DNA from: Sphingomicrobium sp.
GTDB lineage: Bacteria; Pseudomonadota; Alphaproteobacteria; Sphingomonadales; Sphingomonadaceae
Length of the DNA: 64,000 bases
Assembly: GCA_035700945.1 (NCBI GenBank)
Contig: DASSOE010000111.1
Location: forward strand, 16,603-80,602
Direction: 5' to 3'
Shown here: positions 56,257 through 59,194 of the stretch, piece by piece
Numbering within the stretch: the first letter of the stretch is position 1
Layout of the letters: each line of letters opens with the position of its first letter
The notes under the pieces: generated by a model
Told to the model about the DNA's origin: nothing
The model's input: only the letters and a program-made list of their open reading frames with translations
Database searches by the model: none
Translations under genes and position numbers: made by a program

Positions 56257-56262
56257 GGGTTC

Positions 56263-56814
56263 ATGATTACGCGGACCAGCCAGCCGGCAAGCGGGGCGAT
56301 GCTGATCTCCGAAATGAAGGAGTTCGCAGGCTTCCCGAAAGCGACGCAGCGCTACATCCGCCGCTCGCTCGACGTCGCCTACGGCCGCCGCGATGCCATC
56401 GAATGCTGGGCGCGCGACGAAGGCGAAGCCGCGTCGATCCGCGGCCAGGCCCGCCTCTACAAGCAGCTCGACCATCTGCGGATGCAGGTGCCGGACGACA
56501 GCGGCCTCGACATGATCGAGCCCTTCCTGGGCATGCTGATCACCATTTCCGCTTTCGACCTCGGCCAGGACCGCCTGCCGAACTTCGCTGCCTATCGTTT
56601 TCTCTACGAGCGGCTGATCGGCGCAGCCTCGCGGCCATGGCTGCCCGCGGCTTTCTGCGCCGCCGCCGCGCTCCCGCACCTTCACCCGGACCGCCGCCGC
56701 ATCCTGCTCCAGTCAATCAGCGAGAGCGCCGCGACCGCGCCCGGCTGGTCGAGCCGCGAGCCGGTGTTCTGGCCCGAGTGGGTCGAGAAAGTCGATCTGA
56801 AGGCGGCGGCTTAA
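56263..56814 (+). CDS. conserved hypothetical cytoplasmic protein
   Basis: AAAGGAG RBS; core-type codon usage; EMKEFAGFPKATQRYIRRSLD, YRFLYERL, FWPEWVE. Confidence 0.75.
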   Translation: MITRTSQPASGAMLISEMKEFAGFPKATQRYIRRSLDVAYGRRDAIECWARDEGEAASIRGQARLYKQLDHLRMQVPDDSGLDMIEPFLGMLITISAFDLGQDRLPNFAAYRFLYERLIGAASRPWLPAAFCAAAALPHLHPDRRRILLQSISESAATAPGWSSREPVFWPEWVEKVDLKAAA

Positions 56815-56821
56815 GCTGTTG

Positions 56822-56904
56822 CGTCATCCCGGAGTTGATCCGGGACCCGCCGCTTCTTCTGCGGCCGTCAGACAGGCAGACCCCGGCTCAAGGCCGGGGT
56901 GACG
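56822..56904. repeat. REP/BIME-like element, second copy of the 3348-3431 type
   Basis: Ends CGTCATCCCGG / CCGGGGTGACG; minus-strand arm CGTCACCCCGGCCTTGAGCCGGG nearly identical to the first copy. Confidence 0.8.
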
Positions 56905-57391
56905 GCTGAGCCACCTTCACCGACGGGAAAATTTCCGCCAGCTGCCTCAGGCTGTCCTCGGCATTCTTGTGGTGCACGAAGATCACGCCCGCTGTTTCGT
57001 ACGCGGCGCGGTGGTTTTCCCGGTCGTCGACCAGCACGTCGCCGGCATGCATGTGCTTGTGCTTGTCGCGCGCCATGCAGGTGATGATCGGAACTCCGGG
57101 GAAATGCTCAGCCGCCCACTCGACCTTCTGCGGCGCGGCCCATTTGCCGAGCGGAAGCCCGGTGAGGATCGTCGGATCGAGGTGTTTCACCGAGTCGAAC
57201 AGCACCCGGGCGTCCGGCATTTCCGGCAGCGTGCCGTAGAAGTTCTTCGCCTGCGCCAGCCGCTTCCAGAAGGCGCCGCGGCCGTGCTTCCGCTCATATT
57301 CGCGCGGACTCATGCCGAGCAGCCGCCGCACACCCTCATCGAAATCGGCAAGCACCCCATCCGCGTCGAGGAACAGGCGTGGCTCGGGCAT
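56888..57391 (-). CDS. HAD-superfamily phosphatase, NT5C / 5'(3')-deoxyribonucleotidase-like
   Basis: Motif I FLDADGV, motif II ILTG, Lys in QKVEW, motif IV LVDD; start trimmed to MPEPRL. Confidence 0.8.
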   Translation of the reverse strand: MPEPRLFLDADGVLADFDEGVRRLLGMSPREYERKHGRGAFWKRLAQAKNFYGTLPEMPDARVLFDSVKHLDPTILTGLPLGKWAAPQKVEWAAEHFPGVPIITCMARDKHKHMHAGDVLVDDRENHRAAYETAGVIFVHHKNAEDSLRQLAEIFPSVKVAQPSPRP

Positions 57392-57771
57392 CAGAAGCGC
57401 GCGGGCTCCAGTTCGACAGGGATCGGCGCTTCGATGAACTCCCACCCCTGGTCGCGAAGCACGTCGTTGCTCTCCCGGGCCCGGCGGCCGGGCCCGAGCG
57501 ACCACGTGATGTGATAGGTCGATCCGTCCGGCCGGCCGGTGGTGCCGTCGAGCTCGACGACGAGGCATTCGAGGCTCTCGCCATCGTCGGCGCGCCCGAC
57601 GATCTTCGCGCTCTCCGGCTCGTTTGGCAGCGGCGTGTCAGGCGCCGCGCCAACCCGCAGGGTGACGTGATCGGCCACGACATTCTCATATTTCGGCGGG
57701 AAGCGCCGGAGCAGCAGCTCGCGCTCGGTCTCCGGCAGCTTCCAGCCGGTTACGGTTCCAGGTTTGGCCAT
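57391..57771 (-). CDS. minimal 2H phosphoesterase-like protein
   Basis: Two H-x-T motifs, DHVTL and YHITWS; TGA overlaps the HAD ATG (TGATG). Confidence 0.65.
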   Translation of the reverse strand: MAKPGTVTGWKLPETERELLLRRFPPKYENVVADHVTLRVGAAPDTPLPNEPESAKIVGRADDGESLECLVVELDGTTGRPDGSTYHITWSLGPGRRARESNDVLRDQGWEFIEAPIPVELEPARF

Positions 57772-57796: not shown

Positions 57797-59194
57797 TCAG
57801 TTCCGCGCGGCCAGCCGCTCCACCAGCTCGCGCGCCAAGTCGATCAACGTGTCGTCGCGCGCACCCATGATCAGAATGCGGTCGCCGGTCTTCGCTTCCT
57901 CGACAATGGCGTCGCCGACCATCGCCCGTTCGGCAATGTGGACCGCGTCGCACCCGCGCTCCTTCACCTGCTCCGCCAGCCAGTCGCTGCCGCGGGTGCG
58001 CTCCACCGTTCCCCCCTGGTAGACCGGGTCCGGAAGATAGAGGCGGTCGCCCGCCGCCATGCCGGCCGCGAACGCGTCCGCGAGCTGGTCGCCCATCTTC
58101 GTCAGCGGGCCGAAGCCGTGCGGCTGGAACATGATCAGCAGCCTTCCCGGGTGCGCGCGCAGAGTCGCCAGCGTGGCGGCGATCTTGTCGGGGTTGTGCG
58201 CGAAATCGTCGATGACTCTGACGCCCCCCGCTTCGCCCACCGTCTCGAGCCTGCGCCGGAGCCCCTCGAAGCGCCCCATCGCGGAAGCAGAATCCTCGAC
58301 CGCCACGCCGACCGCGCGCGCCGCGGCGATCGCCGCAAGCGCGTTCGAGGCATTGTGCCGGCCCGGCACCGGAAGCTTCACCTCGTGGCGCTCGCCCTCG
58401 GCCTCGACGGCGAAGCTCACCCCGTCGGCCTCGAGCCGAAGTCCCTTGCCCATGAAATCCGCGCCCGGGCTGTCGAAGCCGTAGCCGATCACCTTGTCGC
58501 CCGGCACCGTCGCCGACAGCGCCCGCGTTTCGGGATCGTCGAGGTTGAGCACCGCCTTGCGCGATGCGTTGAGGAAGTGGGCGAACAGCTGCCGAAGCTC
58601 GTCCATCTCCTTGTGGTCGAGGCTGATGTTGGTCAGCACCGCGATCTCGGGCCGGTAGAGCGCGATCGAGCCGTCGCTCTCGTCGACCTCGCTGACGAAC
58701 AGTTCGGGATCGCCGACGAGCGCGCTCGCGAACGGCGCGGACGGGGTCACGAAATTCTTCATCACCGCGCCGTTCATCACCGTCGGCTGGCGATGGCAGG
58801 CGTGGAGGATCCAGCCGATCATGCCGGTCACCGTCGACTTGCCGCTGGTGCCGCCGACGGCGATGCTGCGCTGGGCGCCGTTGAGCAGCTTGGCCAGGAA
58901 TTGGGGCCGGGTGAGATGCGTCAGCCTGAGCTCGCGCGCCCGGACGACGTCGGGGACCGTGTCTTCGACCGCCGCCGAGGTGACGAGCGTCATGCCCTCC
59001 TGAAGCCCGGAGCCGTCCTGCGGGAACAGCTGGATCCCGAGCGAGCGCAGGTAATCGAACTTGTGCGGCGTCCGCCCCGCATCGAGCGAACGGTCGGAGC
59101 CCGCGACCTTCGCGCCGGACGCGCGGACGATGCTCGCCAGCGGAAGCATCCCGCTGCCGCCGATGCCGCTGAAGAAAACCGGAGAATCGATCAT
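57797..59194 (-). CDS. MurC/Mpl-like Mur ligase
   Basis: GIGGSGM, GTSGKSTV, EVDESDG, NISLDH, DDFAHNP; not in a dcw cluster. Confidence 0.8.
   Translation of the reverse strand: MIDSPVFFSGIGGSGMLPLASIVRASGAKVAGSDRSLDAGRTPHKFDYLRSLGIQLFPQDGSGLQEGMTLVTSAAVEDTVPDVVRARELRLTHLTRPQFLAKLLNGAQRSIAVGGTSGKSTVTGMIGWILHACHRQPTVMNGAVMKNFVTPSAPFASALVGDPELFVSEVDESDGSIALYRPEIAVLTNISLDHKEMDELRQLFAHFLNASRKAVLNLDDPETRALSATVPGDKVIGYGFDSPGADFMGKGLRLEADGVSFAVEAEGERHEVKLPVPGRHNASNALAAIAAARAVGVAVEDSASAMGRFEGLRRRLETVGEAGGVRVIDDFAHNPDKIAATLATLRAHPGRLLIMFQPHGFGPLTKMGDQLADAFAAGMAAGDRLYLPDPVYQGGTVERTRGSDWLAEQVKERGCDAVHIAERAMVGDAIVEEAKTGDRILIMGARDDTLIDLARELVERLAARN

Follow-up and report, generated by a model that had tools for sequence, protein, structure and literature searches.

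A predicted 2H phosphoesterase and an NT5C-type HAD phosphatase form a conserved gene pair in phages and Sphingomonadaceae

The locus in Sphingomicrobium

The window analysed here, a stretch of 64,000 nucleotides from Sphingomicrobium sp., contains two overlapping minus-strand genes that encode a small protein with two HxT motifs and a phosphatase of the HAD superfamily. The pair and its neighbours are arranged as follows:

57797..59194, minus strand: Mur ligase paralogue, MurC/Mpl-like, 25 nt upstream of the 2H gene
57391..57771, minus strand: 2H phosphoesterase gene, 126 aa, HxT motifs at residues 35-37 and 87-89, predicted minimal 2H fold
57389..57393, minus strand: stop/start overlap TGATG, one base, read directly from the sequence
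56888..57391, minus strand: HAD phosphatase gene, 167 aa, NT5C or 5'(3')-deoxyribonucleotidase type, helical C1 cap at about residues 17-47
56260..56814, plus strand: gene for a 184-aa protein, family unknown, convergent, marking the downstream border of the pair

An earlier note on this DNA had described a 126-aa protein with the motifs HVT and HIT whose stop codon overlaps the start of a DxD HAD phosphatase with all four motifs. The coordinates proved exact, with HVT at residues 35-37 and HIT at 87-89, and all four HAD motifs were located (D9-x-D11, T77, K110 and D122-D123). The TGA of the 2H gene (57393-57391) and the ATG of the HAD gene (57391-57389) have base 57391 in common, an overlap suggesting that translation of the HAD gene is coupled to that of the 2H gene.

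The upstream Mur ligase paralogue, in which family scans recognized three Mur ligase domains, scores below the cut-offs for both murC (285.7 bits against 335.1) and mpl (181.5 against 388.7). It is probably co-transcribed with the pair, and it adjoins the pair in all 88 loci of the window's own clade. We considered it as a cassette member and rejected it, since five other genera and all of the phages carry the pair without a Mur ligase; it is a genus-specific neighbour. The convergent 184-aa protein, which had no match in family scans, is 88-98% identical across loci (dN/dS 0.05) and also lies outside the cassette. No defence genes flank the pair in the window, and the bacterial flanks consist of housekeeping genes.

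The absence of an adjacent ligase, kinase or RtcB, also pointed out in the earlier note, holds for the whole window, which contains neither a polynucleotide 5'-kinase nor an RNA ligase or RtcB. It extends to the genome (91% complete), in which RtcB, Rnl1 and Rnl2 had no match. A search of 25 related genomes turned up no KptA, and one of 16 genomes of the genus no RNase T2/RNase I. The host genome does carry three canonical LigT/ThpR-type 2H genes besides the gene in the window.

Two protein families and their predicted folds

No Pfam, NCBIfam or PADLOC model matches the 126-aa protein, and no 2H family from Pfam or NCBIfam was returned even at E values up to 1. Searches of PDB sequences with the protein and with its 57-sequence profile yielded noise (eS21 and actin-like proteins) and no 2H protein; the 2H assignment therefore rests on structure rather than on sequence. 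When the 2H profile was aligned by hhalign with the LigT-type proteins of the same genome, the match (E 0.11) spanned 33 columns and covered the second HxT region only.

In the AlphaFold2 model (pLDDT 96.2, pTM 0.89), the two HxT motifs, H35-V-T37 and H87-I-T89, are placed on strands 35-42 and 87-92. All meaningful, high-probability Foldseek matches are 2H enzymes, with modest E values from 1e-4 to 1e-1. They include the kinase-CPD structure of Trl1 (6u05; probability 1.0, TMq 0.62), the phage phosphodiesterase 9q2y/9q2g, the LigT-like 2fyh, 4wcc, CNPase and AKAP18. In a viral library the model matched RNA-ligase CPD domains, among them RNA-ligase proteins of CroV and Marseillevirus (E about 1e-4), as well as a torovirus polyprotein, rotavirus VP3 and, weakly, Acb1 (E 0.03-0.5, TM about 0.5). 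The protein is thus predicted to adopt the two-lobed alpha+beta 2H fold with its motifs on the central strands, as the earlier note had proposed from the motifs.

Among 57 diverse relatives (33-63% identity) H87 never varies, and H35, T37, T89, S91, R80, G83 and S101 each reach at least 90% conservation, so the HxT motifs are not a matter of chance. The family (phrog_36523) comprises 942 clusters at 50% identity (E <= 0.001) and about 5,000 at 90%. The named records that were inspected read "hypothetical" or carry the label of a fused domain only. The 2H domain is also fused to Nudix, cREC, ART and MuF domains, and in polyvalent, MuF-linked proteins it stands beside ART-PolyVal, Nudix and cREC; 2H-HAD fusions were absent from the 27 long representatives. 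Members come from jumbo phages and T4-like phages, from injected polyvalent proteins and from a clade of soil sphingomonads, among them homologues in Sinorhizobium phage Phosso and Ralstonia phage RsoM2USA, and the family was present in 2 of 401 Pseudomonadota genomes; it is mainly phage-borne.

The HAD partner matches PF06941 (38.1 bits, gathering score 24.8) and phrog_2643, and phmmer aligned it with mdN/cdN (E 2e-4) at about 24% identity. Its motifs comprise D9/D11 (I), T77 (II), K110 (III, with K89 also invariant) and D122/D123 (IV). Among 21 partners from phages and bacteria, the motif Asp and Lys residues are invariant and position 77 is T or S; the full invariant set is D9, D11, F17, W42, K89, K110, D122 and D123. 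The AlphaFold2 model (pLDDT 93.8) places three helices (17-25, 29-36 and 38-47) between motifs I and II. The 13 best PDB matches in Foldseek (E 3e-7 to 1e-5, TM 0.61-0.66) comprise mdN, cdN, a deoxyribonucleotidase-like protein from a bacterium and designed proteins to which the HAD protein is similar by sequence as well. Human cdN and mdN are the best folds, and T4 Pnkp is absent from the top 50. The aromatic residues F17, W42 and F51/Y52 fall, in the alignment, on the part of mdN that we take to hold the base-stacking residues. mdN and cdN hydrolyse 2'-, 3'- and 5'-monophosphates, and C1-capped HADs act on small-molecule substrates. By homology and modelled fold, we assign the protein as an NT5C-type capped mononucleotidase, which agrees with one of the options named for it earlier, a 5'(3')-nucleotidase. 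Its cap is shorter than those of mdN and the phage HADs, and could admit larger substrates.

Both genes are under purifying selection, the median dN/dS across 88 orthologous loci being 0.20 (2H) and 0.16 (HAD).

Linkage and gene neighbourhoods in phages and bacteria

The 80 genome loci recovered with a narrower 2H alignment all belong to one sphingomonad clade with identical synteny. This reflects vertical inheritance and therefore provides no independent evidence of linkage, for which we relied on viral contigs and on a family-level search with the HAD protein. Of 44 distinct phage loci, 18 have the two genes side by side, in one order or the other and with varying flanks, and in most of these the genes overlap or are separated by a few bases. 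The genes also adjoin each other in 8 of the 10 Sphingomonadaceae genomes that bear the HAD gene, where the chromosomal contexts are unrelated. Carriers of the pair include the cultured strain Sphingomonas agri LMG 29563 (locus L056). Five of the eight genomes have no match to the Mur ligase or to hyp229, and in the four of them whose flanks were scanned the pair lies among unrelated housekeeping genes. Within the window's own clade adjacency is complete (88 of 88 loci). The co-occurrence that the earlier note had set as a test of its idea is thus far above chance, and the distances among 2H proteins track those among their HAD partners (Mantel r 0.73, 0 of 2000 permutations). We conclude that the pair is a conserved unit whose linkage has been kept through inversion of gene order and change of flanks. 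Its presence at several unrelated chromosomal sites in Sphingomonadaceae suggests exchange with phages, in one direction or the other.

Each gene also occurs alone. The 2H gene lacks a HAD neighbour in 26 of the 44 phage loci and in one bacterial genome (G438), and several sphingomonads have the HAD gene without a 2H gene. In a further genome (G019) the 2H gene has been deleted to a 17-codon stub and the HAD gene retained, in keeping with a general nucleotidase whose upstream supplier is optional.

In phages, nucleotide-metabolism genes are frequent neighbours, namely those for the large and small RNR subunits and glutaredoxin, although the proximity to RNR may reflect mere plasticity of the nrdC-like region in T4-like genomes. 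In one T4-like phage clade (L102, L117, L122, L123 and L129) the pair lies in an operon with the order RlaP-type nucleotidyltransferase, c7, calcineurin-like phosphoesterase, in some cases an AAA gene, c3, HAD, 2H and Rnl1. The Rnl1 assignment is based on PF09511 (72.6 bits) and T4_Rnl1_C (73.6 bits), and in L117 the gap between the 2H gene and Rnl1 is 40 nt. An Rnl1-like gene lies within 5 kb in 7 of the 18 HAD-paired phage loci and in 0 of the 26 2H-only loci (hypergeometric p about 8e-4, but from only about 3 independent lineages); in the remaining 11 paired loci there is no ligase within 5 kb. No polynucleotide kinase was found beside the pair, and AAA_33 kinases lie elsewhere in the phage contigs. 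Macro-domain genes lie near the 2H gene in four phage loci and NMNAT-Nudix genes in three. A PADLOC scan gave 0 hits.

Possible reactions and relation to known systems

The pair probably acts on 2',3'-cyclic phosphates, either of nucleotides or of RNA ends. We tentatively favour the view that it is a self-contained two-gene cassette for removing a 2',3'-cyclic phosphate in two steps, with mononucleotides as the preferred substrates in the bacterium; the order of the reactions, the substrate and the physiological role are inferred. The two HxT histidines of the 2H protein would open the cyclic phosphodiester without a metal to give a 2'- or 3'-monoester, which the HAD protein would then hydrolyse with Asp9 as nucleophile and Mg2+ to a free hydroxyl and phosphate. 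In the bacterium, 2',3'-cyclic NMPs would pass through 2'(3')-NMPs to nucleosides and Pi, possibly together with very short oligonucleotides ending in a cyclic phosphate, and the outcome would be the clearance or salvage of nucleotides from RNA breakdown. The similarity of the HAD protein to the capped mononucleotidases mdN and cdN and the RNR and glutaredoxin neighbours in phages speak for mononucleotides. Several observations speak against this reading: the nearest structural kin of the 2H protein are RNA-end enzymes (the tRNA-ligase CPD domains); one T4-like phage clade has the HAD, 2H and Rnl1 genes in one operon; RNase T2/RNase I, the classical source of 2',3'-cNMPs, was not found in the genus genomes searched; and the three LigT/ThpR-type 2H genes already present leave a fourth without an obvious purpose.

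The same structural kinship and operon are what recommend RNA 3'-end healing, ligase-independent or ligase-assisted, which we regard as a serious rival, if a less likely one. Here the 2H protein would open a cyclic end made on tRNA or rRNA by a metal-independent ribotoxin and the HAD protein would remove the 2' or 3' phosphate to leave a 3'-OH, which Rnl1 would seal in phages and which RlaP or the CCA-adding enzyme would extend where there is no ligase. RlaP adds one to two NMPs to the 3'-OH of damaged RNA (bioRxiv 10.64898/2025.12.29.696909), and the fusion partners of the 2H domain, cREC, Nudix and ART, have a predicted role in the processing of RNA ends and ADPr>p (PMC9503650). The excess of Rnl1-like genes near HAD-paired over 2H-only loci points the same way. 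However, the HAD protein is predicted to be a capped NT5C mononucleotidase, neither the capless Pnkp type nor the "Swiss-army-knife" HAD of known RNA repair, no polynucleotide kinase was found beside the pair, and most paired phage loci are without a nearby ligase. In this bacterium the sealing of healed ends is unlikely because RtcB, Rnl1 and Rnl2 had no match, and KptA had none either. It is similarly conceivable, if on the unlikely side, that the pair is a portable, ligase-independent RNA 3'-end healer spread by phages, in which an NT5C-type HAD has shifted from mononucleotides to the termini of polynucleotides and the resulting 3'-OH ends pass to RlaP or CCA-adding nucleotidyltransferases, or to Rnl1 where there is one.

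We consider it quite improbable that the pair degrades nucleotide-derived signals or NAD/ADP-ribose derivatives, which in phages would amount to counter-defence, the 2H protein cleaving cyclic oligonucleotides or opening ADP-ribose 1'',2''-cyclic phosphate and the HAD protein removing the phosphate. The overwhelmingly phage-borne distribution of the family, the presence of Acb1 and 9q2y/9q2g among the fold matches, the polyvalent MuF-linked architectures and the nearby macro-domain and NMNAT-Nudix genes would all suit such a role. The Acb1 matches are weak, however, defence genes are absent from the PADLOC results and from the flanks of the window's pair, and the bacterial copies sit among housekeeping genes, are vertically inherited and are under purifying selection. 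The ADPr>p version is further down-weighted for the bacterium because none of 25 related genomes yielded KptA, from which ADPr>p is known to arise. Least probable, to the point of being very hard to sustain, is that the proteins have no common pathway, either as independent house-cleaning hydrolases that hitch-hike together or with the 2H-fold protein as a non-catalytic partner. The loci where one gene occurs without the other would be expected in that case, but the adjacency survives order inversion and changing flanks in both phages and bacteria, stop/start overlaps recur, and both HxT motifs are nearly invariant.

Among known systems, the best structural match of the 2H protein is to the CPD domain of the fungal and plant tRNA ligase Trl1 (6u05) and of giant-virus RNA ligases (probability 1.0, TMq 0.54-0.62). 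Trl1 CPD likewise has two HxT motifs on central strands, and its presumed chemistry converts a 2',3'-cyclic phosphate to a 2'-phosphate. In contrast, the protein in the window is free-standing rather than part of a ligase-kinase-CPD polypeptide, is about a third shorter, has no detectable sequence similarity to Trl1 CPD, and has no ligase or kinase partner that we could find in the genome. LigT/ThpR proteins (PF13563, PF02834) share the superfamily fold and the HxT-x-hydrophobic motifs, and hhalign pairs the second HxT motifs, but this profile-profile match is non-significant, Pfam gives no hit and the canonical proteins are about 180 aa long. Acb1 is also a small phage-borne 2H enzyme (about 150 aa); it acts on cyclic oligonucleotides, whereas for the pair described here we found no link to defence, and we know of no pairing of Acb1 with a HAD protein.

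For the HAD protein, cdN and mdN (NT5C, PF06941) and the bacterial 3bwv provide the same four motifs, C1 cap and aligned aromatic residues. The differences lie in the low identity, the shorter cap and the operon with a 2H enzyme, an arrangement that to our knowledge has not been described for NT5C. The T4 Pnkp-Rnl1, Pnkp-Hen1 and RtcAB systems follow the same logic, in which a cyclic or 3' phosphate is removed to give a 3'-OH. The cassette differs from the Pnkp systems by the absence of a kinase domain, by a capped NT5C in place of the capless DxDxT phosphatase of Pnkp, by the opening of the cyclic phosphate by a separate 2H protein and by the bacterium's lack of a ligase match. The earlier remark that the pair does not correspond to Pnkp-Hen1 or Rtc systems was borne out, as the associated kinase and ligase are missing and Rnl1 lies directly downstream only in the one T4-like phage clade. 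The two-step outcome that we propose is the same as that of E. coli CpdB, a periplasmic enzyme that converts 2',3'-cNMPs to 3'-NMPs and then to nucleosides and Pi. CpdB is a single, secreted, metal-dependent protein with calcineurin-like and 5'-nucleotidase C domains, whereas the cassette would act in the cytoplasm through two unrelated folds.

The opening of a cyclic phosphate by a 2H protein followed by removal of the monoester by a HAD protein has already been proposed for RNA repair in jumbo phages, with other HAD families (PMC7824862). Our literature searches found neither a description of a 2H-NT5C pair nor a publication about the phage BCSR5 phosphodiesterase. The pair is a new family and a new pairing of a familiar enzymatic kind.

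With these results a large orphan family gains a fold assignment and a probable chemistry. The recurrent NT5C partner offers a concrete hypothesis for many phage "5'-3' deoxyribonucleotidase" genes, for whose role we found no description in the literature searched. If it acts on RNA ends, the pair would be a new split end-healing module, and as a healer spread by phages it would do the work of the Pnkp phosphatase with two proteins of different fold. If it acts on 2',3'-cNMP, the cassette would provide cytoplasmic clearance of RNA-decay nucleotides in bacteria without RNase I and CpdB-type systems.

The 2H and HAD genes and their products

An earlier note had proposed that a 2H phosphoesterase gene and the adjoining HAD phosphatase gene form a module for RNA-end healing or cyclic-nucleotide disposal; its coordinates and its description of both ORFs, including the HxT motifs, the overlap and the HAD motifs, proved exact on the sequence. 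The pair and its immediate neighbours are arranged as follows.

56260-56814, plus strand: conserved hypothetical gene (184 aa), convergent on the HAD gene
56888-57391, minus strand: HAD gene (167 aa), with HAD motifs I to IV
57391-57771, minus strand: 2H gene (126 aa), with HVT at residues 35-37 and HIT at 87-89
57797-59194, minus strand: Mur ligase paralogue, MurC/Mpl-like, upstream of the 2H gene and under both curated cut-offs

The TGA stop of the 2H gene and the ATG of the HAD gene have base 57391 in common (TGATG). A GC-rich hairpin (56881-56899; CCCCGGC, 5-nt loop, GCCGGGG) lies where the two convergent genes meet and overlaps the HAD stop codon; it is not followed by a T-run and was not called in the terminator scan. 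The Mur ligase paralogue, a genus-specific neighbour, scores 285.7 against the murC model (cut-off 335.1) and 181.5 against mpl (cut-off 388.7), and upstream of it are genes for an exported-looking 220-aa protein and a D-aminoacylase-like amidohydrolase. The 184-aa convergent protein has no Pfam or NCBIfam match and retains 88-98% amino-acid identity over 80+ genomes (dN/dS about 0.05), its neighbours being far less conserved; genome G021 encodes a paralogue that is 54% identical.

Library scans of the 2H protein returned no Pfam, NCBIfam or PADLOC match, and a match to phrog_36523 (E 6.5e-25), a family of unknown function. Its family comprises 5,153 clusters at 90% identity and 942 representatives at 50% identity (E <= 0.001), and all source names encountered for single-domain relatives were "hypothetical protein", including those in the isolated jumbo phages Phosso, SCTP-2, RsoM2USA and Atu_ph07. 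H87 never varies in an alignment of 57 diverse members, and H35, T37, T89, S91, R80, G83 and S101 are conserved in >= 90%. The AlphaFold2 model built from this alignment (pLDDT 96.2, pTM 0.89) places both HxT motifs on beta-strands, and its weighty Foldseek matches are essentially all 2H phosphoesterases. In the PDB these include the Trl1 kinase-CPD (6u05; prob 1.0, TMq 0.62), phage phosphodiesterase 9q2y/9q2g, Pyrococcus LigT-like 2fyh, CNPase and AKAP18; in the viral library they include CroV and Marseillevirus RNA-ligase proteins (E about 1e-4), the walleye dermal sarcoma virus envelope polyprotein, Acb1, and torovirus, coronavirus and rotavirus proteins. Sequence and profile searches did not reach known 2H proteins, and in hhalign comparisons with the LigT-type proteins of this genome the second motif alone aligned (E 0.11). 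Because fold and motifs match where these methods do not reach, we read the protein as a compact 2H-superfamily branch that is an orphan by sequence, a placement that depends on the predicted fold and the motifs.

The HAD protein (motifs D9-x-D11, T77, K110 and D122-D123) matches PF06941 (NT5C; 38.1 bits, cut-off 24.8) and phrog_2643, annotated as "5'-3' deoxyribonucleotidase", and human mdN and cdN were retrieved by phmmer. In its AF2 model (pLDDT 93.8), three helices that form the cap separate motif I from motif II. The 13 best PDB fold matches (E 3e-7 to 1e-5) are mdN, cdN, a bacterial deoxyribonucleotidase-like protein or designs, the designs being those that also match by sequence, whereas T4 Pnkp is absent from the top 50. 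From these sequence and fold matches, the cap helices and the absence of T4 Pnkp, it is a capped HAD of the mononucleotidase type.

Linkage of the two genes

The order Mur ligase, 2H, HAD and convergent hypothetical gene is constant at 88/88 loci of the window's clade, which reflects vertical inheritance; independent evidence of linkage was drawn from a further three sources, namely phages, a sample of Sphingomonadaceae, and co-evolution and selection. An NT5C-like HAD adjoins the 2H gene at 18 of 44 distinct 2H-bearing viral loci, in either gene order, with varying neighbours and, in most of the 18, with a gap of few bases or an overlap. Among 201 sampled Sphingomonadaceae genomes, 10 carry the HAD (7/112 genera), and in eight of these the 2H gene lies directly upstream. 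Neither a Mur ligase nor a conserved-hypothetical match lies near five of these eight pairs; genes in the scanned flanks of four of them include those for a cation efflux protein, PurT, a glycerol-3-phosphate oxidase-like FAD oxidoreductase, PCMT, a PAS-domain protein and a YfiO-family lipoprotein. Distances of the 2H and HAD proteins co-vary (Mantel r 0.73), and both genes are under purifying selection (dN/dS 0.20 for 2H and 0.16 for HAD; Mur ligase, for comparison, 0.155).

The pairing is not obligate. The 2H gene lacks a HAD partner at 26/44 phage loci, and some members of the genus have the HAD directly after the Mur ligase or have neither gene. Where the 2H gene is missing in the genus, the Mur ligase stop adjoins the HAD start or lies a few bases off. 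Genome G019 retains a 17-codon 5'-end 2H stub (locus L151, about 2646-2696; E 0.003) between Mur ligase and HAD, in the expected position and strand, so the 2H gene was lost there by secondary deletion and the HAD kept. Since the 2H family is rare in cells (2/401 sampled Pseudomonadota genomes) and frequent in large phages, the pair is essentially phage-associated, with chromosomal copies in a few sphingomonad lineages.

Phage contexts of the 2H family

Five loci of a T4-like clade (L102, L117, L122, L123 and L129) share an operon in the order RlaP/NrdC.11-type NTase, c7 (lysine-rich, 171 aa), calcineurin-like phosphoesterase, in some cases an AAA ATPase, c3 (acidic, 81 aa), HAD, 2H and Rnl1. 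The Rnl1-type ligase scores 72.6 bits against PF09511 and 73.6 bits against T4_Rnl1_C. At L129, 2H and Rnl1 are separated by a 290-aa minus-strand ORF that, by its sequence, looks like a GIY-YIG homing endonuclease. Rnl1-like genes occur within 5 kb of 7/18 HAD-paired loci versus 0/26 2H-only loci, in about three lineages in all. RlaP was recently shown to add 1-2 NMPs onto the 3'-OH of damaged RNA (bioRxiv 10.64898/2025.12.29.696909). The operon as a whole looks like an undescribed RNA-repair cassette.

The 2H domain is also fused to Nudix (twice), cREC, ART-PolyVal, MuF, GNAT and DUF6968, in part within polyvalent proteins (2,362 and 2,831 aa); comparative genomics has assigned 2H, cREC, Nudix and ART to networks processing RNA cyclic ends and ADP-ribose cyclic phosphate (PMC9503650, PMC7824862). 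Recurring phage neighbours include both RNR subunits, glutaredoxin, topoisomerase II, ClpX, Macro, NMNAT-Nudix and AdoMet decarboxylase. In Atu_ph07-like jumbo phages (Phosso 380146-380946; L109, L125, L127 and L136), 2H is flanked by topoisomerase II and an S-adenosylmethionine decarboxylase-like gene, then by a membrane coiled-coil protein and ClpX, with the HAD partner absent. Other HAD-less phages (L090-L095) have two families of unknown function upstream of 2H: one of about 250 aa with no match, and one matching phrog_11975, a ~300-aa module in a single or two tandem copies with short motifs in common by eye (e.g., R.N/SSIFA and F.YTN), which might have an ART-like fold.

Proposed function and novelty

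What all lines of evidence share is two-step removal of a cyclic phosphate: the 2H enzyme would open the cyclic phosphate and the HAD would remove the resulting monoester. The analysis shows the folds, the motifs, the linkage and the selection; we infer the order of the reactions, the substrate and the role of the pair. Mononucleotides rank first (2',3'-cNMP to 2'(3')-NMP to nucleoside), a reading we hold at slightly below even chances, because the HAD is a member of a family of capped mononucleotidases and no RNA ligase was seen in the bacterium (RtcB, Rnl1 and Rnl2 had no match in its own genome). RNase T2 was found in 0/16 genomes of the genus and KptA in 0/25 related genomes. The bacterium's genome, a metagenome-assembled genome (G000), has three canonical LigT/ThpR-type 2H genes at other sites; two LigT/ThpR genes on separate contigs of it (C109:4832-5602 and C56:812-1351; 81% identical) may be true paralogues, strain heterogeneity or bin contamination.

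Healing of RNA 3' ends, to which the CPD-like fold of the 2H protein and the phage operon with Rnl1 and RlaP point, comes second on those grounds, a serious rival though at well below even chances. Degradation of signals or ADP-ribose derivatives is third and improbable, and mere co-location of the two genes, ranked last, is very improbable.

A 2H enzyme acting with a HAD, though one from other HAD families, is a published proposal for RNA repair in phages (PMC7824862), and the enzymatic logic of the pair is already known. What is new, and was found described nowhere in the libraries and literature searched, is the minimal orphan 2H family, the way it pairs with an NT5C-type HAD to form a mobile unit, and the distribution of the pair.
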